Part shown: piece after piece, positions 23,272 to 64,000 of the stretch
Position numbering within the stretch: position 1 is the first letter of the stretch
Layout: each line of letters starts with the position of its first letter
Assembly: GCA_043771335.1 (NCBI GenBank)
Contig: JAYVHM010000001.1
Coordinates: 92,901 to 156,900 of the forward strand
From: a bacterium
GTDB lineage: Bacteria > Patescibacteriota > Minisyncoccia > Phycocordibacterales > UBA5272
Reading direction: 5' to 3'
DNA length: 64,000 nucleotides
The notes under the pieces: generated by a model
The model's database searches: none
What the model was told of the DNA's origin: nothing
The model's input: only the letters and a program-made list of their open reading frames with translations
Made by a program: the position numbers and the translations under genes

Positions 23272-23279
23272 TTTATTTG

Positions 23280-23353
23280 TGTCGATGGGTGGGATCGAAC
23301 CACCGACCTTAGCTTTATGAGTGCTATGCTCTAACCAACTGAGCTACATCGAC
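23280..23353 (-). tRNA. tRNA with CAT anticodon (Met or Ile2; elongator-like, G1-C72 paired)
   Basis: Reverse complement gives GTCGATG-TA-GCTCAGTTGGTTAGAGC-A-TAGCA-CTCATAA-AGCTA-AGGTC-GGTGGTTCGATCCCACC-CATCGAC-A. Perfect acceptor, D and T arms; the anticodon stem has one A-A mismatch; CCA not encoded. Confidence 0.7.
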
Positions 23354-23397
23354 ATAAGGTGGTGAGCAATGCAAAGCATTACCCAGACCTATCCTTG

Positions 23398-23467
23398 TTG
23401 CGGAAACTGGAATCGAACCAGTGTCCCGAGGTTATGAGCCTCGTGAGTTACCTCTACTCTATTCCGC
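23398..23467 (-). tRNA. tRNA-like gene with CAT anticodon (short D-arm; Met/fMet/Ile2 undetermined)
   Basis: Reverse complement gives GCGGAAT..GAGT-AGAGGTA-ACTC-A-CGAGG-CTCATAA-CCTCG-GGAC-ACTGGTTCGATTCCAGT-TTCCGCAA. The T-loop (TTCGATT) and anticodon arm are clean; the acceptor or D spacing is atypical and needs tRNAscan. Confidence 0.5.
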
Positions 23468-23505
23468 TATGTTTTCAAGAAAATTAATACTTTTCAAGAG
23501 CTTTC

Positions 23506-53751: not shown

Positions 53752-56226
53752 TTACAGTTCAAATAGACTTTTACCACTAACAACATTTACTTTTAATGGG
53801 ACTTTGTTTTTAAAATCATAATTGTCTAAAACATTTTGCATACTATCTGCTATTATTTTAGAATATTTTTCTACTTTATCAGCATCACACTCAAAAACTA
53901 ATTCATCATGTATCTGCAACAACATCTTAATCTCTGTATTTTGAATTCTAATACCCATCTCCTTGTCATTATGTTCTGGGTTCAAAATATTATTAACCTG
54001 TATCATGCCTAGCTTTATAATATCTGAGCTAGTTCCCTGTATCGGTGCATTGATAGCAATGCGTTCGCCCTGAGCACGCATAAAAGGCAAGTGAGACTTT
54101 AGGAGTGGCACCTGTCTACGTCTTCCAAAGAGAGTTGAAGTATAGCCATTTTTCGTAGCTTCTAATTTTACTAATTCCAAATAATCTATTAACTCATGAA
54201 AAGTATTTTTAAAATTATCATAAAAATCTTGAGCTGTTTTCCTGTCTGTATGCATAGCATCTTTGAGTGCGCTCACCCCCATACCATAAAGTATACCAAA
54301 ATTAATTGCTTTGGCTTTTCTTCTCTCTTCATCAGTCACTTCTTCTAATTTTTTCCCCAAGACTTCTGCTGCGACACCAGTGTGAATGTCTATATTATTA
54401 TTAAATATATCAATTAACTTTTTATCACCTGAAAGTATAGCTGCTGCACGCAAATCTATTTGTGAGTAATCAGCTGAAACTAATACCTTACCCTCATCTG
54501 CCACAAAGACTTTACGAAAAGCGAGACCTATCTCAGTATTGCGAGGAATATTTTGCATGTTGGGGTTTTCGCAAGAAAACCTACCTGTCGCAGCACCAGC
54601 CTGCATAAACCTTGGATGCACCCGACCGTCATCAAGTATAAAATTATGTAGTGGTTCTATGTAGGTATTAAAAACTTTTGATACTTCACGGAAATTAATT
54701 ATCTTCCCAACTATCTCATGCTCATCTTTTATGCTTTCAAGCATGTCAGCATTTGTACTTCTGGCACCGCTTGCTGTTTTTTTTATTTTAGTTCCAAGTC
54801 CTATATGATCATAGAGAATCTCTCCTAATTGCTTTGGACTAGAGATTAGAAATTCTTTTCCGGCGAGCGTATGTATTTCTTTTTCCAAATTATTTATAAT
54901 ATTTTTTACAAATATTTTTTGCTTTTCTAATTCTGTCACGTTAACAAGCACTCCATTCTCTCTCATATTTTCAAGTATGTCAAAAAGAGGTTCTTCTAAT
55001 TTTTTATAATAATTAAAAGTTCCAGCATCTTGCATTTTTTTCTCTAAAGTTTTCTTTATTATATCAAAATTATTTTGTTCTTCGTCGATATTATGTATGT
55101 TTTTAAGATCTTCTAAGCTAATATTATTTTTCTCACTCTCTATTATACTACTTATTACTTGTAACTCATTCATCTCTTTTTCTGATAATGTAACCACCAC
55201 TTTTATCTCTTCTATTTTTTCTGTATTACCAGAATCAAAATTAGAAGCACTTAATCCTCCTGTTACTATCTCTAAATTAGAATTAGTGTCTTCTTTCTTT
55301 TTAAAAATATTTTTCAAACTACGAAGCTCATATAAATCACAAAGTTTTTCATATTCAACCTTGTCATATTTTTCACCAAAATGATGTTCAAAGTTATTAA
55401 ATATATTTACGTCTATCGGAGCATCTAAGATTATTGTGGCGAGGGTCTTCGAAAACAAGGCATCCTCTTCGTTATTTTTTATATTTTCAAATATTTTTCC
55501 CTTTACTATTTTGTGTATATTAACAAAATTATTTTGCTCATCTTTTTTTATTTGTTCATAAAAATTTTCTACTGTCTTATATTCTTTTAATATTTTTATC
55601 GCTGTCTTTGGGCCTACCCCCATCACTCCTGGTATATTATCGCTGGCATCACCGGAGAATCCTTTGTAGTCTGGGATCTGTTTTGGTGACAACTCGTATT
55701 TGTCCATTACTTCTTTTTCTCCAAAAACACTTACTTCTGCGGCTTTTTTTAGGGTGCAGATTTTTACGTTATCATTTACTAATTGCAATGTGTCCATATC
55801 ACCACTAACTATAACTATGTTGTACTTATCACTATACATTTTTGATATAGTGCCCAGCATGTCATCAGCCTCAAAGCCTTCCATTTCACATATCGGTATA
55901 TTGAGAGCCTTACAAAAATCTTTTGACTGATTTATCTGCACTTTCAAATCCTCATCACTTTTTTGCCTAGTTCCTTTATATGCATCATAAGCAAGGTGGC
56001 GAAAAGTAGGCTTTGGCAAATCATAAGTAGCAACTACATAGTCAGGAGCGGCTAATTCATTCGCAGAAATAATCATTTTTAGGAATCCATAAAGGGCGCC
56101 CGTAGGGCGACCATCCCTAGTGAAAAAGTTTTGCATTGCATGATAACCACGATGTAGTAGCGCATGACTGTCTATTAACATTAGAACTTTTTTATCTTTA
56201 TTTTTACCTTTAAATATTTTTGACAT
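53752..56226 (-). CDS. polA: DNA polymerase I (5'-3' exonuclease plus polymerase; no obvious 3'-5' exonuclease motifs)
   Basis: LIDSHALLHRGYHA 5'-nuclease N-terminus; polymerase motifs DYSQIDLR (A), RRKAKAINFGILYG (B) and QIHDELVFE (C). Confidence 0.9.
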   Translation of the reverse strand: MSKIFKGKNKDKKVLMLIDSHALLHRGYHAMQNFFTRDGRPTGALYGFLKMIISANELAAPDYVVATYDLPKPTFRHLAYDAYKGTRQKSDEDLKVQINQSKDFCKALNIPICEMEGFEADDMLGTISKMYSDKYNIVIVSGDMDTLQLVNDNVKICTLKKAAEVSVFGEKEVMDKYELSPKQIPDYKGFSGDASDNIPGVMGVGPKTAIKILKEYKTVENFYEQIKKDEQNNFVNIHKIVKGKIFENIKNNEEDALFSKTLATIILDAPIDVNIFNNFEHHFGEKYDKVEYEKLCDLYELRSLKNIFKKKEDTNSNLEIVTGGLSASNFDSGNTEKIEEIKVVVTLSEKEMNELQVISSIIESEKNNISLEDLKNIHNIDEEQNNFDIIKKTLEKKMQDAGTFNYYKKLEEPLFDILENMRENGVLVNVTELEKQKIFVKNIINNLEKEIHTLAGKEFLISSPKQLGEILYDHIGLGTKIKKTASGARSTNADMLESIKDEHEIVGKIINFREVSKVFNTYIEPLHNFILDDGRVHPRFMQAGAATGRFSCENPNMQNIPRNTEIGLAFRKVFVADEGKVLVSADYSQIDLRAAAILSGDKKLIDIFNNNIDIHTGVAAEVLGKKLEEVTDEERRKAKAINFGILYGMGVSALKDAMHTDRKTAQDFYDNFKNTFHELIDYLELVKLEATKNGYTSTLFGRRRQVPLLKSHLPFMRAQGERIAINAPIQGTSSDIIKLGMIQVNNILNPEHNDKEMGIRIQNTEIKMLLQIHDELVFECDADKVEKYSKIIADSMQNVLDNYDFKNKVPLKVNVVSGKSLFEL

Positions 56227-56233
56227 GTTATTT

Positions 56234-56692
56234 TTAATATATTTCTACTTTTATATTCCTCTCTTCTTCATTTACTTTTTCTATACTTATAATCATGTCA
56301 GCATTTGGAGCATACATGTTTTTGGGCCACTCTATCAAAACTATATTCTCTTTTTTGTTATCATCCAGCCTTAAAACATGTCCTTCTTTTTTATATTCAA
56401 ATCTGTAAGCATCTATATGTAGCAACTTTTTATACTTGTTTTTATAATTATATTTTTCAAAATCTAAATCATATTCACGCATTAGGGTAAAAGTTGGTGA
56501 TTGCATGTGACCATCTATGCAAAGCTCTTTTCCTATTTTTTGAGCAAAAGTTGTTTTTCCAGCACCCATATCACCCTCTAAATAAACAACGAAAGATTCT
56601 TTCTCAGATTCCAAAAAAACTTTTACAATCTCTTTTGCTATATTTTCTAAATCTTCTATTTTTAAGTTGTTGTAACTCTTAAAACTATTCAT
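56234..56692 (-). CDS. tsaE: tRNA t6A biosynthesis protein TsaE
   Basis: YLEGDMGAGKTTF P-loop in a ~150-aa protein. Confidence 0.8.
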   Translation of the reverse strand: MNSFKSYNNLKIEDLENIAKEIVKVFLESEKESFVVYLEGDMGAGKTTFAQKIGKELCIDGHMQSPTFTLMREYDLDFEKYNYKNKYKKLLHIDAYRFEYKKEGHVLRLDDNKKENIVLIEWPKNMYAPNADMIISIEKVNEEERNIKVEIY

Positions 56693-56733: not shown

Positions 56734-58569
56734 TTAATGATGGCCCAAAACTTGATTAGTGTGTCTCTTGTGTATCATTTTCTTGTATATATTTCTACCT
56801 AGTATATATAATATTACAAAAAGAATAATACATAATAATAGCTTGAACAGCCAACCACTCCAGAACATTGACTGACTAGAACCCTCACTTGAAGTATTAA
56901 GAGACTTGTCAGTAACTGTAGATATTATGTAAGTGCTAGATTCGTCACTTATCTCATTGTTATTTTCGTCGAGAAGATCGTAAGTTGCTAATGCTGATAC
57001 TATTAAACTTTTTCCTGTAGCCACATTTTTATCTGCTTTTAATTTTAAAATCACAACCCCTTCTTCACCTGCTTTTATTTTATTTATTTCTACAGATATG
57101 GTATTCTCGGCACCAACAGAATAATCTCTTGACGATACTGCTGTCATACCTTCTGGAACTTTTATTGTAAATAAAACATTGTTAACAGTTAACTCACTTT
57201 TATTTTTATAACTTAACTCGTATTCAGAAGTCTCACCAGCATAGACATAATTTGTTTTATTTTCTATGGCTAATAACATTAATTTATCACCCTCTTTTAA
57301 GCTTTCTGTATTACCTTCTGAATCTTTACATATTACTGTAGATTTTACAGTTTTTGTAACTTTTGTGCTTACTTTTTTCACCTGCTCTTCTCTTACTGTT
57401 GAGACGTATCTTTTTGCTTCTGATAAAGTTTTAAAACTTAATATATCACCCCTGTAGGTCCCATTGGAATTTCTAATAACAGCTCGGCAATAATATGTGG
57501 TATCTGGTTTTAAATTAGTTATAGTATTAGAAAAAGAAATAGATTCATCACCAATATCCCCAGAATTAGTAACCTTACCTAGGTCTCTGGTGCTACCATA
57601 TTCAAAATATCCATTAGTGTCTAATCCACTGTGAATATTATCTAAGGCGTTACATCTGGCACTATTCAAGCCTATTTGATTTATATTGGTAGTTATAACA
57701 CTGTCTCTATCTCTATAATTGACTGTGTATGTATTTTGAGTTGACTGAGTGCGTGTGGCATAGGTCTGCATATTGTTACTGCCCGATGGACAGTTTTCAT
57801 TTTCTGGTATATCTTTTCCATTTGCTGATCCACCCCAACAAACCTTTGTACACACTTCATAAAAATTAACCTGACTTCCATCTTTACAATTTTTCTTAAT
57901 AGGCATACAGTTTTGTCCTGAGACATTATAATTAGCTGGGCACACTACTCTTGGTGCGGTAGGTGTGTTATTATATGTTTGAGTGTAGCCATTACCTCCA
58001 CCCCAAATAGTAGGCGTTGGCGGGACATAAGCAACAGGCATTGGAGTTGGTGTATTGTAAACTACAATAGGCTTATATGTTGTAGTGTAGCCATTACCTC
58101 CACCCCAGTTAGTGACTGCAGAAGGAGTGTAAGGAGTTGAGGGTGTGGGTGTAGTATATATAGGAGAAGGTTTATATGTTGTAGTGTAGCCATTACCTCC
58201 ACCACCCCAATTAGTTACAGCAGGAGGAGAATAAGTAACATTAACACCAGTACCCCCTGTATATGTAGGAGTATTGTTATAGGTTGGACTATTCGTATAT
58301 ACTGGATTATTATTGTTTGTAGGGGATGTATACACTGGCGAATTATTAACAGGGCAAGAATAAGGCACAGTTACAAATATACCATCACCACAATCAACCT
58401 GCACAGGGTTATTTGTTGTGGGTGTTGTGTATATAGGATCTGGCTCTGGAGCTGTAACACAGCTAGGACAATCTAAATCAAAATCGTCACCAAATTCAGA
58501 ATAAGAAAAATTAAAAATTAATGTTAATAAAAGAAGGTTGAATAATATATTTTTAAGAATTTTTTTCAT
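56734..58569 (-). CDS. Cell-surface protein: signal peptide, Thr/Pro/Tyr-rich WGGGNGYTTTYKP repeats, Fn3-like domain, DUF11-like domain, C-terminal TM anchor
   Basis: Signal peptide LLLLTLIFNFSYS; three tandem repeats; Fn3-like TNGYFEYGST...TTYYCRAV; C-terminal WLFKLLLCIILFVILYILG. Confidence 0.55.
   Translation of the reverse strand: MKKILKNILFNLLLLTLIFNFSYSEFGDDFDLDCPSCVTAPEPDPIYTTPTTNNPVQVDCGDGIFVTVPYSCPVNNSPVYTSPTNNNNPVYTNSPTYNNTPTYTGGTGVNVTYSPPAVTNWGGGGNGYTTTYKPSPIYTTPTPSTPYTPSAVTNWGGGNGYTTTYKPIVVYNTPTPMPVAYVPPTPTIWGGGNGYTQTYNNTPTAPRVVCPANYNVSGQNCMPIKKNCKDGSQVNFYEVCTKVCWGGSANGKDIPENENCPSGSNNMQTYATRTQSTQNTYTVNYRDRDSVITTNINQIGLNSARCNALDNIHSGLDTNGYFEYGSTRDLGKVTNSGDIGDESISFSNTITNLKPDTTYYCRAVIRNSNGTYRGDILSFKTLSEAKRYVSTVREEQVKKVSTKVTKTVKSTVICKDSEGNTESLKEGDKLMLLAIENKTNYVYAGETSEYELSYKNKSELTVNNVLFTIKVPEGMTAVSSRDYSVGAENTISVEINKIKAGEEGVVILKLKADKNVATGKSLIVSALATYDLLDENNNEISDESSTYIISTVTDKSLNTSSEGSSQSMFWSGWLFKLLLCIILFVILYILGRNIYKKMIHKRHTNQVLGHH
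57969..58224. repeat. Tandem ~80-bp coding repeats (WGGGNGYTTTYKP units)
   Basis: ggtgtagtgtagccattacctccacccca recurs three times. Confidence 0.6.
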
Positions 58570-58571
58570 AT

Positions 58572-59288
58572 TTATTTTTTACACATACCTTCTGGACATG
58601 GTGGACACAGTGGCTCTCCAACATAAAGCCTATTAAAACATTCTGCGATATATGTCTGCTTCACTCCATTTACGTCTCTGGTATATAACTCTGTACCCTT
58701 TTTTAACACAACAAAACCCTTAGTCATAAAATCTTCTCCATTTGCACCCTGTATCTCTCCTACAGAAAGATAATCTGCTTTTAAATTAAATTTTCGCAAT
58801 CCTTCCACTTCCAAAAACTTAACTTCGTCCCCTTTATATTTTTTGATTATACTATTGATGTTGTCAAAAGATTTTGGCTTATAGTATTTTGCTTCATTTT
58901 TTTGGAACTCTCCTGCATGCCAGTCTTTTACTATTTTTTCTAAATCATTATAGACGCTAAGGTCATCTGCTTTTGGATTTTTAAGTATATGTGGGATATT
59001 TTTATTATTTAAAAATTCTTGGAATTTTCTTTTGCTTATCTGATTATTGGCAAAAGCCTGCACCTCGTCTTTTGCTTGCACTTCTTCTGACAAAAATCCA
59101 AGACTGAGGCTAGTGGCAACTACCCCTGCAGCTAACTTTCCAGCACCACCTAAAAAACCTCTTCTACTAAGAACCTCTTCTTCTCCCTCATTTACTTTTT
59201 GTGTGTCAGATAATATGCCTGCAAGAGTCGCTAGGTGTGGTGGCATTCCTAAAATTTGCTTTATATTCATAATGTAATTATCCCACAT
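58572..59288 (-). CDS. Tat-signal secreted protein with C-terminal CPPCPEGMC motif
   Basis: SRRGFLGGAG twin-arginine motif followed by a hydrophobic h-region and AKD cleavage-like site. Confidence 0.5.
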   Translation of the reverse strand: MWDNYIMNIKQILGMPPHLATLAGILSDTQKVNEGEEEVLSRRGFLGGAGKLAAGVVATSLSLGFLSEEVQAKDEVQAFANNQISKRKFQEFLNNKNIPHILKNPKADDLSVYNDLEKIVKDWHAGEFQKNEAKYYKPKSFDNINSIIKKYKGDEVKFLEVEGLRKFNLKADYLSVGEIQGANGEDFMTKGFVVLKKGTELYTRDVNGVKQTYIAECFNRLYVGEPLCPPCPEGMCKK

Positions 59289-59367
59289 TTAAGAGATATA
59301 ACAAAGCATCTTTTGCACATGATAAAATCCCCCGGCCAAAGGCCGTGGGATTTTATTCTAAAACCAA

Positions 59368-61629
59368 TTAATGAGAAGTGTTGTCATTAGAACCTAAACC
59401 CTTAACGTCTCTTAATATTACTCTACCTAACACGAACAATATCATTATTAGTGCTAAAATAGCTACCCACTCTAACAATGTGCTCGGCAATACACTTATT
59501 GATTTTGAAGATTTTTCAATATCATTAGTTTTTGTATTTGAGTCTTTGTTTGTGTCAGTTACCGTAGAAATAACATAAGCAGTTACTTCATCTTTTAAAG
59601 TTTTACCTTTTGTATCTAATACTTCGTAAGATAAGTAAGAATTAAGTACTAAGCTTTTTCCGGCTGTAGCGTTATCATCAACTTTTAATTTGATGATTTT
59701 CTCTACCGTTTCTCCTGTTCTCACTCTTGCATCCTCTATAGTAATAGAGTTTTCAATAGCATCATACTCTCCGATATTCTTATCAACAAAAGTCATATCT
59801 TTTGGAGCTGTAATTTTGGCTATCACATTAGAGAGTGTTAGCTCTGAAGTATTTTTATAAGTTACTTTATAGTCTACAACACCTCCTTTTGTGATTTGAT
59901 TAGAGATAGCCTCTATCCTTACTGTCGCTAACTTCTCACCGCTTTTGATAATATCCTTATTACCATCTACGTCTTGGCAAGTAATGTCTATACCACCTTT
60001 ATCTGATTTTGGTGCTACATAAGTTATTACTTTTTTACTTTTTACATAAGTTACTACTTGTTTTGGTTTTGGAGCTGTGACTACTGGTATGTATTTTACA
60101 TAATCACTTGCTGTTCTAAAGCTCATAAGTTCACCCTTGTAAGTACCGTTTGCATTTACTATAACTGCTCTACAATAATATAAAGTATTTGGTTTAAGAT
60201 TAGTTATAAGGCTTGAGTATTGAGTGTTCATTTGATTGCCAATATTACCAGAATTAGTATTATGTCCAAGTGATTGAGTGGCTCCATACTCAAAGTATCC
60301 ATTAGTGTTAACCCCATTAGCTATCATCGCTACACCATTACACTTTGCACTGTTTTGCATGATTTGTGTTGGTACGGTAGTAACTACTCTGTGATTAATG
60401 GTTATTATATTTCTACAATAGTTATTGTAATCATTTTGAGAATAATAAGTTCTGCTATTTACAGTACAATACCAAGTTGGTGCAGTTACAGTTTTACAGT
60501 AGTTACTGTACTCATTTTCAGTGGTATAATAATATCCATTAATAGAACAGTATTTTTTACATCCATCAGCGTATGATTGATTGGTGGAATATGTCTGACC
60601 ATTTAATGCACAATACATTGTAGTTGGAGCTTTACAGATATTATTAAATTCATTCTGAGTATTATAATAGTATCCATTGTAAGTACAGTATAATCTACAT
60701 CCTGTATTATATGAATCTTGTGTATTATAAGTAGATCCATTTAATGAACAATACCAAGTCTGAGTATTTTTACAATAAGCATCATAAGCAGATTGTGATG
60801 AGTAGTATTGACCATTAATAGAACAATATATATTCACTACTGGAGCTTTACAGTAATTATTAAAGTCTGATTGAGAGTTATAATAATATCCATTAATAGA
60901 ACAGTATTTTTTACATCCATCAGCATAAGACTGTTGAGAATTATAAGTCTGTCCATTTAACGCACAATATAAGTTAACTACATTTTTACAATTAGCATCG
61001 TAAGTTGCTTGCGAGTTATAGTATTGACCGTTAATCGCACAATATATTCTAACTTCTGGAGCTTTACAATAATTGTTAAAGTCTGACTGAGAGTGATATG
61101 TCTGTCCGTTAATAGAACAGTATAAGTTAATAACTGGTAATGATGGTGTTACTGGTGTCGGGTAAGTATATATAGGGCTTGGTGTTGTATATATGGGTGC
61201 AGGATTTGTGTATATAGGATTAGTTGGATAAGTATATATAGGGCTTGGTGTTGTATATATAGGATTAGCTGGATATGTGTACACTGGATCGTTGTATACT
61301 GGATTTGTCGGATATGTATATACTGGATCGTTGTATATAGGCTGAGTATATACTGGGTCGTTATAAATTGGATCAGTATACACTGGGTCATTAGTGTATG
61401 TATTACAACTTCCATAATATTCACAACCATAAGACACCGTATCTACATTATTATTTGTGTAGCCAGTGTAATCAGTGTTGTCATAATTGTAGTCAGTAGT
61501 GTAGTTATAATCATAGTCATACTGAGCATAAACTGATTGCACTACTACAAAGTTAGCATTGAATAAAAATGCAAAAAGCATTGATGCTGTTAATGTTTTT
61601 TTACTGATATTTATAAGGATTTTTTTCAT
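59368..61629 (-). CDS. Cell-surface protein: signal peptide, P-x-Y-T repeats, ten 2-Cys ~24-aa repeats, Fn3-like domain, DUF11-like domain, C-terminal TM anchor
   Basis: Paralogous architecture to the 56734 gene; Fn3-like block is about 55% identical (TNGYFEYGAT...TLYYCRAVIVNANGTY); C-terminal LLEWVAILALIMILFVLG. Confidence 0.55.
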   Translation of the reverse strand: MKKILINISKKTLTASMLFAFLFNANFVVVQSVYAQYDYDYNYTTDYNYDNTDYTGYTNNNVDTVSYGCEYYGSCNTYTNDPVYTDPIYNDPVYTQPIYNDPVYTYPTNPVYNDPVYTYPANPIYTTPSPIYTYPTNPIYTNPAPIYTTPSPIYTYPTPVTPSLPVINLYCSINGQTYHSQSDFNNYCKAPEVRIYCAINGQYYNSQATYDANCKNVVNLYCALNGQTYNSQQSYADGCKKYCSINGYYYNSQSDFNNYCKAPVVNIYCSINGQYYSSQSAYDAYCKNTQTWYCSLNGSTYNTQDSYNTGCRLYCTYNGYYYNTQNEFNNICKAPTTMYCALNGQTYSTNQSYADGCKKYCSINGYYYTTENEYSNYCKTVTAPTWYCTVNSRTYYSQNDYNNYCRNIITINHRVVTTVPTQIMQNSAKCNGVAMIANGVNTNGYFEYGATQSLGHNTNSGNIGNQMNTQYSSLITNLKPNTLYYCRAVIVNANGTYKGELMSFRTASDYVKYIPVVTAPKPKQVVTYVKSKKVITYVAPKSDKGGIDITCQDVDGNKDIIKSGEKLATVRIEAISNQITKGGVVDYKVTYKNTSELTLSNVIAKITAPKDMTFVDKNIGEYDAIENSITIEDARVRTGETVEKIIKLKVDDNATAGKSLVLNSYLSYEVLDTKGKTLKDEVTAYVISTVTDTNKDSNTKTNDIEKSSKSISVLPSTLLEWVAILALIMILFVLGRVILRDVKGLGSNDNTSH
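60380..61125. repeat. Tandem ~72-bp (3-unit super-period ~216 bp) coding repeats encoding YCxxNGQxYxSQxxYxxxCK units
   Basis: Near-identical DNA blocks such as aatagaacagtattttttacatccatcagc recur. Confidence 0.65.
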
Positions 61630-61800
61630 AAGTTTTGTTTTTTAAATTTTTCTATATATTTTAATAATTCTCCATTTTTAACACCTATTTTAGGGTTTTA
61701 TTATTATATCATAATACTTTACAACTTGTCAAGTGCTATGTCTTACTAAAATTACTATTTTCTATATTTTACATAACACTACCATTTTTTAAGCAAAAAG

Positions 61801-61832
61801 AAAAGCCTAACTAATTTACATTAGTTAGGCTT
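61801..61832. repeat. Perfect inverted repeat AAGCCTAACTAA-tttaca-TTAGTTAGGCTT
   Basis: 12-bp stem read directly from the sequence. Confidence 0.6.
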
Positions 61833-61837
61833 ATTAA

Positions 61838-62001
61838 AGTCTATTTATAATCCGCACGACTCATTTTTGCGGTTTAAGCATATCAGTTTTTATGCTGAGA
61901 TAACTTATTGTTGACTGGAAAGTCTATTTATAATCCGCACGACTCATTTTTGCGGTTTAAGCATATCAGTTTTTATGCTGAGATAACTTATTGTTGACTG
62001 G
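61838..62001. repeat. Perfect 81-bp direct tandem duplication (two copies separated by aa)
   Basis: agtctatttataatccgcacgactcatttttgcggtttaagcatatcagtttttatgctgagataacttattgttgactgg at 61838..61918 and 61921..62001; copy 2 contains the last 12 codons of the 61966 gene. Confidence 0.9.
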
Positions 62002-62961
62002 TTTGTACTTTTCAGCAGTTACACAACCATTAGGGAGCTTGAAATGCTTAGTCATGTCTGGCCAAGCTTTCTTCTCAATCACTTCTTGGACCTTGTCGCA
62101 ATCATTCCCAGTAACTCCACCCAGTATCATGCGTGCATAGCCAGAACCTTCACCATTGGTCCAGTCAGTAACAGTAACAAGACCTGAAGTCTTGTCATGT
62201 CCAAGCTTGAACAGGCGACCATCTGTGGTACGAATACCGCAATAATCTGCATTCACTACTCCTTGAAAAGTTGCCACTGGCCGACTGCTACAACCTTGGG
62301 TGTGGCACACTTGACCAGTTACAGAATTACTTGGACGAGCGACGGAAATGTTTGGAGTAGCCCCTGGGACTTTCATTCCTGAATCATTCCAACCTTTCCA
62401 CTGATATTGGACAGTGCCTGCTACTTCAACACCCTGAATGAGATGAATTTTTTGTCCTGGTAAGTAACATAACCACTCACCACGATCATTCATTTTATCC
62501 AAAGTGCCTGAAGCTTGATCGCAAACTTTTTTTGCTTCGCATTTAGCATCACAAACAGTTTGCATCACTGTGCCCGCATGCACACCCTGCACTACACCTG
62601 GCAGCTGAGCCGTAACTGGTTCTGACATTTGATTACCAGGTAACCAGTTAGTGTAATTGGTGCATGGCGCTGCATGCCAAGCTTTGCTTGTTGGATGTTG
62701 AGCCATTTCAAAGCCAGTAGGAAGAACTACGAATTGATAACCCTGCACTGTTTCCATCTGGATACAGGTTGAGGATGTTAACTTTTCGCGCTTCCAAGAT
62801 TTTGGAGCTGGGCGGTTCAGGCTTGGTGAGTAGAACATTGATGTTCCGTCAGCAAGAGATGACTGACATTTTCCCAAATCAGCAAAGTAGATTTTGTTCT
62901 CTCCTGCTTGTACCATAAATGGAACAAGAGAGAAAAATAAAACAAAGAACCATTTTTTCAT
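61966..62961 (-). CDS. Secreted Cys-rich hypothetical protein in the higher-GC segment
   Basis: Signal peptide MKKWFFVLFFSLVPFMVQAG and about 20 Cys; codon usage is GC-rich and unlike the rest of the window. Confidence 0.45.
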   Translation of the reverse strand: MKKWFFVLFFSLVPFMVQAGENKIYFADLGKCQSSLADGTSMFYSPSLNRPAPKSWKREKLTSSTCIQMETVQGYQFVVLPTGFEMAQHPTSKAWHAAPCTNYTNWLPGNQMSEPVTAQLPGVVQGVHAGTVMQTVCDAKCEAKKVCDQASGTLDKMNDRGEWLCYLPGQKIHLIQGVEVAGTVQYQWKGWNDSGMKVPGATPNISVARPSNSVTGQVCHTQGCSSRPVATFQGVVNADYCGIRTTDGRLFKLGHDKTSGLVTVTDWTNGEGSGYARMILGGVTGNDCDKVQEVIEKKAWPDMTKHFKLPNGCVTAEKYKPVNNKLSQHKN

Positions 62962-63134
62962 GATAATTTCCTTTAAGAATAAGTAAGTTACTGGGTGCGG
63001 AATGCACTTAATTAACCTGGATCATGTACGTTGTATATTATACTCTTTTAAAACTATTTGTCAAGTAACTTACAAGAATTAGACAAAATAAAAAGCGAAG
63101 ATTTATTTTAATTTAAATCTTCGCTTTTGGTGAC

Positions 63135-63940
63135 CTAGATATTACAAACAATCAATTGACTTCCATCGGGATTTTTAATTCCTTTAGAAATCATTCTATT
63201 TGTCTCCACTTGATCTATACCGCTAACACACATTTTTTTTAACTGCTGTGTGGCGGTTGGTTTTACTGATGGTAAAGGCTTTGCATCATCTTGTTTAGGT
63301 GATGCGGGCGATTTTACCGCAGGCGGAGGGACTGGTGCTGCTTTTGGTATCACCGGTGACGCAGGCACTACAACTGCCGGAGCAGGAGGAGTAACTTGTG
63401 GCACCGGAACTACTTTTTTACAGCGCATGGACCGTTTTGACTCAAACAGTCAAGCAATTGCTTGCTTGCAGCTAACTCAGCTTTAAGTCTCGCATTGTCA
63501 GCATCAGCCAATGTGGCTAGGGCTGAGGATGAAGACGCTGCAGCGGGTACAGCTGCTGTAGAAATAGCAGTCAATGGTTTAACACTAATGTCTTTATCTG
63601 CCCATGGACGCCACGCAAGAACAAAGAGGACAATAGCACCCACCAGCATCAAAAACCAAAGTTTATACTTATCATAAACATCAATCTTTACACCGGAGAG
63701 ATGCTTAGCCACAGCATTTTCAATGTTGGTGTTCAATGCCTGAACACCAGCAGCAACATTTCCCTGAGAAGATACCCCTGACATACCTTGATTTTGATTT
63801 AAGGCAGCAGCAACACCACTCTGAGCGGCAATGTGCGTATGAGCAGACTGAATATCCATAGGATCAAATCCTTGAGCAAGAAGTGCTTGGTGATTAAGAC
63901 CCATTCTGATATGCCCTGCTATCTGTTCGATTACATTCAT
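63135..63940 (-). pseudogene. Frameshifted or split gene: N-terminal domain, TM, Ala-rich, then Pro-rich region and C-terminal domain (TolA/TonB/FimV-like architecture)
   Basis: ORFs 63410..63940 and 63135..63428 overlap in different frames at an A6 run (gtaaaaaagtag); a 1-nt change fuses ...GPCAVKK to VVPVPQVTPP... Confidence 0.4.
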
Positions 63941-64000
63941 GATTATCTCCTTTCAAAGAGTTGCGGGATCATTAGCCCGGGGATATTATCCCTAAATAAA

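Follow-up and report, generated by a model that had tools for sequence, protein, structure and literature searches.

A conserved tsaE–polA-linked family of putative membrane-anchored surface proteins in Patescibacteria, with a paralogous pair in one subclade

Introduction

Surface adhesins that contain the CLIPPER domain, formerly known as DUF11 (PF01345), are exemplified by the fibrillar adhesin B9T28_05395 of Acinetobacter (PDB 9IFR; PMC12617251). The isopeptide triad of this domain consists of Lys, Asn and a catalytic Asp (the Asp of the LND motif), and some family members lack it (PMC12617251). Here we analyse a locus in a 64-kb stretch of patescibacterial DNA (contig JAYVHM010000001.1, positions 92,901–156,900; hereafter the window), which has a G+C content of ∼31% and derives from a 211-kb scaffold of a glacier-fed-stream metagenome (ENA ERZ28573538, BUSI22-1_SAMN19433714 scaffold_16). 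The locus contains two paralogous genes for putative membrane-anchored surface proteins (hereafter A and B) and, between them, a gene (T) for a protein with a twin-arginine translocation (Tat) motif. Our results suggest, with moderate confidence, that A and B are transmembrane (TM)-anchored surface stalk proteins with variable distal regions, and that they belong to a conserved tsaE–polA-linked module, of which a second copy, and T, occur in one subclade only.

The closest known kind of protein to the A/B family is the CLIPPER-containing surface adhesin (PMC12617251). By contrast with such adhesins, the A/B family (i) has one CLIPPER domain, apparently without the canonical isopeptide residues, and no tandem stalk; (ii) is anchored by a conserved TM helix rather than by an LPXTG signal, an OmpA-like domain or an archaeosortase signal; (iii) has unannotated distal modules with no recognized adhesive head; and (iv) has a fixed genomic position and a probably dedicated upstream partner gene. 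For the Fn3-like domain of A and B, the closest known counterparts are the Fn3 domains of bacterial surface and sensor proteins (e.g. the RsgI4 sensor domain, 7CG8, and Vibrio cholerae RbmA, 4KKP), from which it differs by an invariant Cys pair and by sub-threshold matches to Pfam fn3; no shared function is implied. T resembles known Tat signals (TIGR01409/PF10518) in its S-R-R-G-F-L-G motif, hydrophobic stretch and A-x-A-like site, but has a conserved 34-residue n-region before the RR pair, and homologs without RR exist.

Two further systems provide points of comparison. Archaeal S-layer glycoproteins consist of a signal peptide, Ig-like domains, a Ser/Thr-rich linker, a C-terminal TM helix and a short basic tail. 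The A/B family, whose gene is single-copy and conserved, shows a similar domain order, but no sequence or family relationship was found and the likeness is an analogy only. As in LPXTG sortase substrates, B-type proteins carry a Pro-x-Thr/Ser motif directly before a hydrophobic helix and basic residues, but the motif is LPx[TS]L rather than LPXTG and the tail is long. No description of the A/B family was found in an open-access subset of the literature on DUF11 in the candidate phyla radiation and on sortases, and a paper on Paceibacteria surface proteins offered general background only.

Distribution and genomic position of the family

A word-indexed search for the A/B family returned only seven clusters, while a scan for the pattern YYCRAV[MI]xN in species-level Patescibacteria genomes (one genome per species) recovered 67 loci (referred to below, where needed, by L numbers). 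These are labelled Paceibacterota, Nomurabacteria, Parcubacteria or Patescibacteria, or belong to generically labelled third-party annotation assemblies. In all 64 loci with a long enough contig, the family gene is followed directly by tsaE and polA in the same orientation; the PolA proteins of the loci are 44–91% identical to that of the window. A divergent PilB-type ATPase gene is present ∼2.5 kb upstream in 40 of the 43 loci with enough upstream sequence. Beyond it, RuvB-type (34 loci) and RuvC-type (23 loci) open reading frames (ORFs) were identified by sequence, with Pfam labels in L003 and L005.

Complete family members vary between 447 and 1147 amino acids (aa) and contain 9–63 Cys. They have in common a signal peptide, Tyr/Thr/Pro/Asn-rich low-complexity repeats, arrays of short Cys-bounded modules, a conserved Fn3–linker–CLIPPER block, a Ser/Thr-rich linker and a juxtamembrane motif followed by a TM helix, with the consensus [FL]LPx[TS]LxEW-LALIAILFIIFILGRSIY. 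The juxtamembrane motif and TM helix (family alignment positions 308–331) are the most conserved stretch, even where PolA is only 45–50% identical, and this strong conservation hints at a membrane partner or a processing enzyme. Most tails of the family end in one to three His.

Synteny and conservation across 67 loci of a large Patescibacteria clade do not fit an accessory adhesin island. The family gene is instead a conserved, vertically inherited gene with a variable head.

Two assemblies show peculiarities. In L003 (GCA_964635125.1, 2800–14600), polA, ruvB and the PilB-type ATPase gene are split or shortened in the gene calls, while tblastn aligns polA end to end; frameshifts or stop-codon recoding in this assembly might explain the split genes. 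In L006 (830–3390), which is a scaffold from a sister sample, the B homolog is broken by two N runs in its repeat region. Gene calls and lengths of the family in metagenome assemblies are therefore often truncated.

Domain architecture of A and B

The three minus-strand ORFs are located where a previous sequence-only reading had placed them (Table 1), and most of its description of the anchored proteins stands. A and B are paralogs that share 40% identity over 358 columns in their C-terminal ∼350 residues (BLASTP, E 1e-69), while their N-terminal Pro-x-Tyr-Thr stretches are only weakly similar. Both have a Sec-type signal-peptide-like N-terminus and a YFEYG...YYCRAV domain. The C-terminal hydrophobic stretch, which had been read as an anchor with a basic tail, is a helix in the model of A and is followed by the basic tail. 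The repeat content also agrees, with three WGGGNGYT units in A, and 12 P-x-Y-[TN] motifs and ten 18-aa C-x16-C modules in B.

Table 1. Coordinates of genes, protein regions and putative transcription signals in the window.
Feature	Position	Strand	Remarks
I331 (331 aa)	61966–62961	minus	Secreted Cys-containing protein directly upstream of B; beyond the interval of the original finding
Terminator-like hairpin after I331	61803–61832	minus	13 pairs; separates I331 from the promoter-like site of B
Promoter-like site upstream of B	61703–61732	minus	Sigma-70-type; TTGACA, 18 nt, TATAAT, TG before –10; 12/12 matches
Gene B (753 aa)	59368–61629	minus	ORF, paralogy with A; conservative copy of the family
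B signal peptide	61525–61629	minus
B Tyr/Asp/Asn/Pro-rich region	61135–61524	minus	With P-x-Y-T motifs
B ten C-x16-C modules	60415–61119	minus
B Fn3-like domain	about 60109–60402	minus
B CLIPPER-like domain	about 59554–59988	minus
B LPSTLLEW motif and TM helix	59425–59490	minus
B predicted cytoplasmic tail	59371–59424	minus
Terminator-like hairpin between B and T	59322–59356	minus	GC-rich, with UUUUAU; –23.4 kcal/mol, z –2.7
Promoter-like site upstream of T	59277–59304	minus	TTGTTA, 16 nt, GATAAT, with TG
Gene T, as ORF (238 aa)	58572–59288	minus
Gene T, source-record gene call (232 aa)	58572–59270	minus
T conserved n-region	59169–59270	minus
T twin-arginine motif	59145–59168	minus	SRRGFLGG
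T hydrophobic region	59091–59144	minus
T c-region	59073–59090	minus	Ends VQA (A-x-A-like site)
T predicted mature protein	58575–59072	minus
T ECFN...CPPCPEGMCKK	58575–58643	minus
Gene A (611 aa)	56734–58569	minus	Diverged paralog of B
A signal peptide	58498–58569	minus
A Pro/Thr/Tyr-rich region	57955–58440	minus	Three WGGGNGYT units
A Cys-bounded modules	57781–57954	minus
A Fn3-like domain	57424–57702	minus
A CLIPPER domain	56911–57339	minus
A TM helix	56797–56865	minus
A basic tail	56737–56796	minus	Ends GHH
tsaE	56234–56692	minus	TsaE match 1.3e-28
polA	53752–56226	minus	Downstream of tsaE

The C-terminal 408 residues of A were modelled with AlphaFold from nine family sequences (mean predicted local distance difference test score, pLDDT, 65; 72–88 in the domains). 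The model contains two beta-sandwiches followed by one long C-terminal helix (model residues 370–406). In this model, the predicted folds agree with an Fn3 beta-sandwich and, for the CLIPPER domain, with a CnaA-like Ig beta-sandwich. With these folds, and with PF01345 matches in 63 of the 72 family members (E ≤ 0.01; best 3.9e-10), the earlier Fn3-like and DUF11-like assignments hold, although A alone scores 21–22 bits, just under the cut-off of 24.6, and B alone gives no match. PF01345 is also present in the precomputed annotation of P0002, P0004, P0006 and P0007. Below-threshold matches to Pfam fn3 and Pur_ac_phosph_N occur in four and 18 of the 72 members, respectively, and the invariant Cys pair of the Fn3-like domain lies in NSARCN...YYCRAV. 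Searches of PDB sequences with the C-terminus of A gave chance-level matches only, and the family profile did not reach 9IFR by sequence. Weak matches to DUF2118 and Lnu(D) were rejected as noise.

The CLIPPER domain of the family was then compared with that of 9IFR, with an hhalign register of low probability (E 0.01). Where 9IFR has the LND Asp, 68 of the 72 members have Val or Ile, and the Asn column in the partner strand contains no conserved Asn in the 72-member alignment. An intramolecular isopeptide bond is therefore unlikely, and the canonical triad appears to be absent from the family; a non-canonical bond may exist. K168, D281, E282, Y269 and Y286 are invariant or nearly so. The layout also departs from that of fibrillar adhesins, i.e. 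an adhesive domain borne on a stalk of repeated domains, as the family has a single Fn3-like and a single CLIPPER domain.

The C-terminus of B-type proteins, with its LPx[TS]L motif, hydrophobic helix and basic residues, might instead be a sortase-like or other processing signal; the ectodomain would then be cut off and joined to the wall. Most members have the sequence [FIL][LFM]P-x-[TS]-L-x-[EG]-W (P in 63/72, W in 64/72) and is followed by ∼17 hydrophobic residues and then by Arg or Lys in 60/72, a tripartite layout that recalls LPXTG-type signals. However, no Gly follows the Thr (LPSTL in B), the post-helix tail of 15–20 residues is longer than usual for sorting signals, and A-type copies do not have the motif. 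Furthermore, the motif is confined to this family in the available sequence (69 of 69 matches), a regular expression for the sortase catalytic signature gave two matches in the window and loci, neither of them sortase-like, and a profile of the C-terminal tail returned only fragments of 45–72 aa from a set of 5.8 billion proteins. We consider such processing quite unlikely and favour a TM helix that keeps the proteins in the membrane.

Repeats and rate of evolution

The sequence-only reading proposed that near-identical DNA repeats make A and B recombinationally unstable. In such a host-attachment or surface-variation locus, repeat arrays would expand and contract by recombination or slippage and generate length variants. 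Repeats do exist in both genes. Their longest exact stretches (32 nt in A and 46 nt in B, compared with 11–14 nt in codon-shuffled controls) are long enough in principle for unequal homologous recombination, and the L006 homolog of B is interrupted by scaffold gaps in this very region. The number of C-x16-C modules in B also differs among species, with ten in the window, 11 in L011 and 12 in L014 (two complete orthologs), and six in the single-copy homolog of L022. However, the repeat units are only 62–90% identical at the DNA level (Tandem Repeats Finder and a repeat finder) and are thus not near-identical. A has three WGGGNGYT units in the window as well as in L010, L011 and L013, which are 78–89% identical to it, and the lengths of the genes hardly vary (A, 611, 609 and 612 aa; B, 753 and 766 aa). 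This is not the pattern expected of a contingency locus.

Rapid evolution is not observed either. Ratios of nonsynonymous to synonymous substitution rates (dN/dS; Nei–Gojobori method, against L011 and L010) are 0.09–0.12 for A, 0.08 for B and 0.07–0.11 for T, with dS near saturation (0.7–1.1). These values are at the level of the neighbouring housekeeping genes, i.e. polA (0.07), grpE (0.08–0.10), dnaK (0.04–0.05) and tsaE (0.16–0.19). Neither diversifying selection nor rapid length change is evident among the compared relatives, while module copy number does drift between species. With the gene also syntenic in 67 loci, a surface-variation locus is very improbable.

A different possibility is that A and B are structural parts of the envelope, such as an S-layer-like or wall-spanning scaffold or its anchor, in which the distal Tyr/Thr/Pro-rich, Cys-knotted region would form, or attach to, the envelope of the cell itself. 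This would be consistent with a single-copy gene that is always present at a fixed position in the clade, with purifying selection at the level of housekeeping genes, with the TM helix and juxtamembrane motif as the most conserved stretch and, by analogy, with the layout of archaeal S-layer glycoproteins. Also, DUF11 proteins have been noted in archaeal S-layer-associated porins and in the stabilization of cell aggregates (PMC12617251). By contrast, the variation of the N-terminal regions between lineages, in both length and Cys number, fits recognition better than a lattice, and Pfam and NCBIfam scans detected no S-layer domain in A, B or the family. A purely structural role is somewhat unlikely on this evidence, and we prefer the reading of A and B as surface stalks with variable distal regions.

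Protein T and its twin-arginine motif

The twin-arginine motif noted earlier in T is present as SRRGFLGG, with a TIGR01409 score of 18.1–18.2 bits against a curated cut-off of 16.7, and the protein ends in the Cys motif CPPCPEGMCKK. T homologs are rare: a word-indexed search found six clusters, and only ten clusters at 50% identity occur among 1.84 billion representatives. In a family alignment of 12 members, down to 29% identity, S/N-R-R-x-F-L is retained in 11 and replaced by KR in the twelfth; TIGR01409 matches eight members and PF10518 six. An A-x-A-like site follows the hydrophobic stretch in this alignment, and the n-region ahead of RR (MNxKQFLGxPPxPA...) is conserved in several members.

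The C-terminal motif was also considered as a candidate cofactor site. CPPCPEGMC is rejected as a conserved four-Cys metal or cofactor site because only two Cys (C211 and C222) are invariant in the 12 members; the CPPC element is found in many of them, not in all. The mature part of T matches no known cofactor-binding family, and searches of PDB sequences with T gave chance-level matches only.

Alternatively, T might not be a Tat substrate: the RR pair could be a chance feature of a Sec signal or signal anchor, with T exported unfolded or tethered to the membrane. Short T-like proteins that precede single-copy family genes in L019 (5667–6384), L021 (5746–6457) and L033 (6060–6831) have TK, LK or KI where T has RR, while their C-terminal C-x(10–12)-CPPC is retained. 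The lack of a conserved cofactor-type residue set in T points in the same direction, as does the absence of TatA and TatC from the sequence covered, i.e. the window and related loci of ∼1 Mb in total, which represent only small parts of the genomes and were searched by tblastn with approximate Escherichia coli and Bacillus subtilis TatA/TatC queries and by a TatA regular expression. However, retention of the motif down to 29% identity and the TIGR01409 and PF10518 matches, with T itself above the curated cut-off, argue for a Tat signal, and some Paceibacteria are reported to have TatA and TatC (PMC9166423). Export of T by another route appears rather doubtful to us, and we retain a Tat signal as the more plausible assignment.

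Duplication and a possible two-gene cassette

Two copies of the family gene are present solely in the subclade of the window (L006/L007, L010–L014, L018 and L024). B retains the ancestral juxtamembrane motif, and its C-terminal module is nearer to the single-copy homologs than that of A. A is the diverged copy, with FWSGWLFK in place of the motif and a tail of the form KRH...LGHH. The order B–T–A is kept in L010–L014 and L018; L080 shows T–A, and L081 contains all three genes in fragments. Wherever the context is readable, T lies directly before an A-type gene with a spacing of 1–8 nt (an overlap in L080); in the window, the start codon of A is 2 nt past the stop codon of T. Except in L015, T is in turn preceded by a B-type gene in every contig that extends far enough upstream. 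L011 and L014 share the full order I331-like, B, T, A.

We then examined the genes upstream of family members with an iterated T-family profile, run on 4568 ORFs of at least 60 aa from the window and loci. The profile recruited 26 ORFs, all of which (26/26; 24 flagged by script, those of L080 and L081 confirmed by reading) directly precede a family gene in the same orientation, compared with a background rate of 64 of 937 ORFs. The first pass recruited RR-less short homologs before single-copy genes (L019, L021, L033 and L042; E 3e-10 to 6e-5), the second pass longer L050-type proteins (E 2.4e-6) and the fourth pass I331 (E 6e-5). The I331 and L050 types are clearly homologous (hhalign 95%, E 1.7e-8; hmmsearch 1.6e-11). 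The hhalign match between T and the L050 type covers two colinear motifs, WHAG...Y-x-P and V-x-L-K-x-G-T-E...E-C-x-N-x-x-Y.

These comparisons suggest that B probably has I331 as its partner gene, and that I331 may be distantly related to T. The locus may therefore have arisen by tandem duplication of a cassette that consists of a partner and an anchored protein, i.e. (I331, B) and (T, A). This is the simplest reading because I331 precedes B and T precedes A, and both upstream genes would belong to the same small secreted Cys-containing family. The earlier description of two adhesins flanking a Tat protein may perhaps be better read as two tandem pairs.

Transcription signals and the GC-rich upstream segment

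Promoter and terminator assignments in Table 1 are based on consensus matches only. The promoter-like site of B lies ∼75 nt upstream of the gene, in intergenic DNA (61630–61918) that is 98.6% identical in L011. The hairpin between B and T is retained in L010, L011 and L013, where it shows paired changes, while L012 and L014 have a different hairpin there. The promoter-like site of T is conserved in L010, L011 and L013; because its predicted –10 box overlaps the upstream ATG at 59288, the 232-aa start of T is favoured. Three transcription units are likely: I331, B, and T–A(–tsaE–polA).

The DNA upstream of B differs in composition from the rest of the genome. A 2-kb segment (61966–64000, which runs past the window; L002 9000–11000) has a G+C content of 43–44% in a 31% genome and encodes I331 and two further ORFs (97 and 176 aa), all three without a Pfam match. 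A similar trend is seen across the clade: in 31 of 36 loci, the G+C content of the 2 kb before the family gene exceeds that of tsaE–polA by more than 5 points (median +9), and G+C at third codon positions of the ORFs is 0.50 in this segment versus 0.31 (paired median +0.22). The ORFs of the segment are mostly small signal-peptide proteins that differ between lineages. Rfam searches of the window and eight GC-rich islands found tRNAs only, and no RNA in the GC-rich segment; two minus-strand tRNA-Met (CAT) genes with 44 nt between them lie at 23279–23468 of the window.

I331 itself is 97% identical in amino acids to its counterpart in L011 (3683–4675), with a dS of 0.18 compared with 0.7–1.1 for its neighbours. 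Together with the near-identity of the adjacent intergenic DNA, this low dS suggests a recent exchange of the segment between the two lineages. An exact tandem duplication (61836–62001; 83-bp unit, 2.0 copies, 100% identity) covers the 3' end of I331 and the DNA downstream of it. The unit is single-copy in L011 (97.6% identity), and the duplication is either a very recent event or an assembly artefact.

Proposed function

On the reading that we favour, A and B would be type-I membrane-anchored cell-surface proteins of a Paceibacteria-type patescibacterium. A Sec-type signal peptide would export them, and the C-terminal TM helix and short basic, His-ended cytoplasmic tail would anchor them in the membrane. 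The membrane-proximal CLIPPER (CnaA-like Ig) and Fn3-like domains would form a short stalk that bears the lineage-variable Tyr/Thr/Pro-rich repeats and small disulphide-bounded modules, presumably the ligand-binding part. B would represent the conservative copy of a gene that is single in most related genomes and fixed upstream of tsaE–polA, and A a paralog that diverged in one subclade. The gene directly before the anchored gene appears to belong to a small secreted Cys-containing family in at least 26 related loci, and within this family T may have acquired or kept a twin-arginine signal. T would be translationally coupled to A, given their 2-nt spacing, and most likely acts outside the cell together with A; a similar physical partnership may exist between I331 and B.

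Several results weigh against parts of this proposal. No adhesive domain was recognized in the distal regions of A and B, where Pfam and NCBIfam scans gave nothing at or near curated cut-offs. The AlphaFold2 model of T (six close homologs) has a pLDDT of 37 and is unusable for a fold search, and the Tat components sought above were absent from the sequence covered. L006/L007 and L024 have two copies of the family gene without T; T is therefore not obligatory for the A-type copy. The link between T and the L050 type is weak (hhalign E 0.0045 at 8% probability), a reverse search with the L050-type profile reaches just one T-like protein (E 0.026), and hhalign gives no signal between T and the I331 group.

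A role of A and B in host attachment is plausible. Their conservation and purifying selection tip the balance a little towards a core function in the envelope or at the host interface. A broader but unlikely possibility is that the secreted Cys-containing partner and the TM-anchored Fn3–CLIPPER protein with its hypervariable distal region constitute a core envelope or host-interface apparatus of Paceibacteria, linked to tsaE–polA in every genome. The upstream GC-rich recombining island would then set partner or host specificity, and one subclade would have duplicated the module and switched one partner to Tat export.

Implications

Host attachment and recognition in Patescibacteria are largely unknown, and most of their surface proteins are unannotated. 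Our results define a clade-wide, positionally fixed family of putative surface proteins, in which a clear domain plan is combined with a variable distal part and, probably, a partner gene. They also correct the expectation that such loci vary fast, as this locus evolves like a housekeeping gene. The A/B family is thus a concrete candidate for studies of the envelope and host contact, and may serve as a marker locus for comparisons between lineages.

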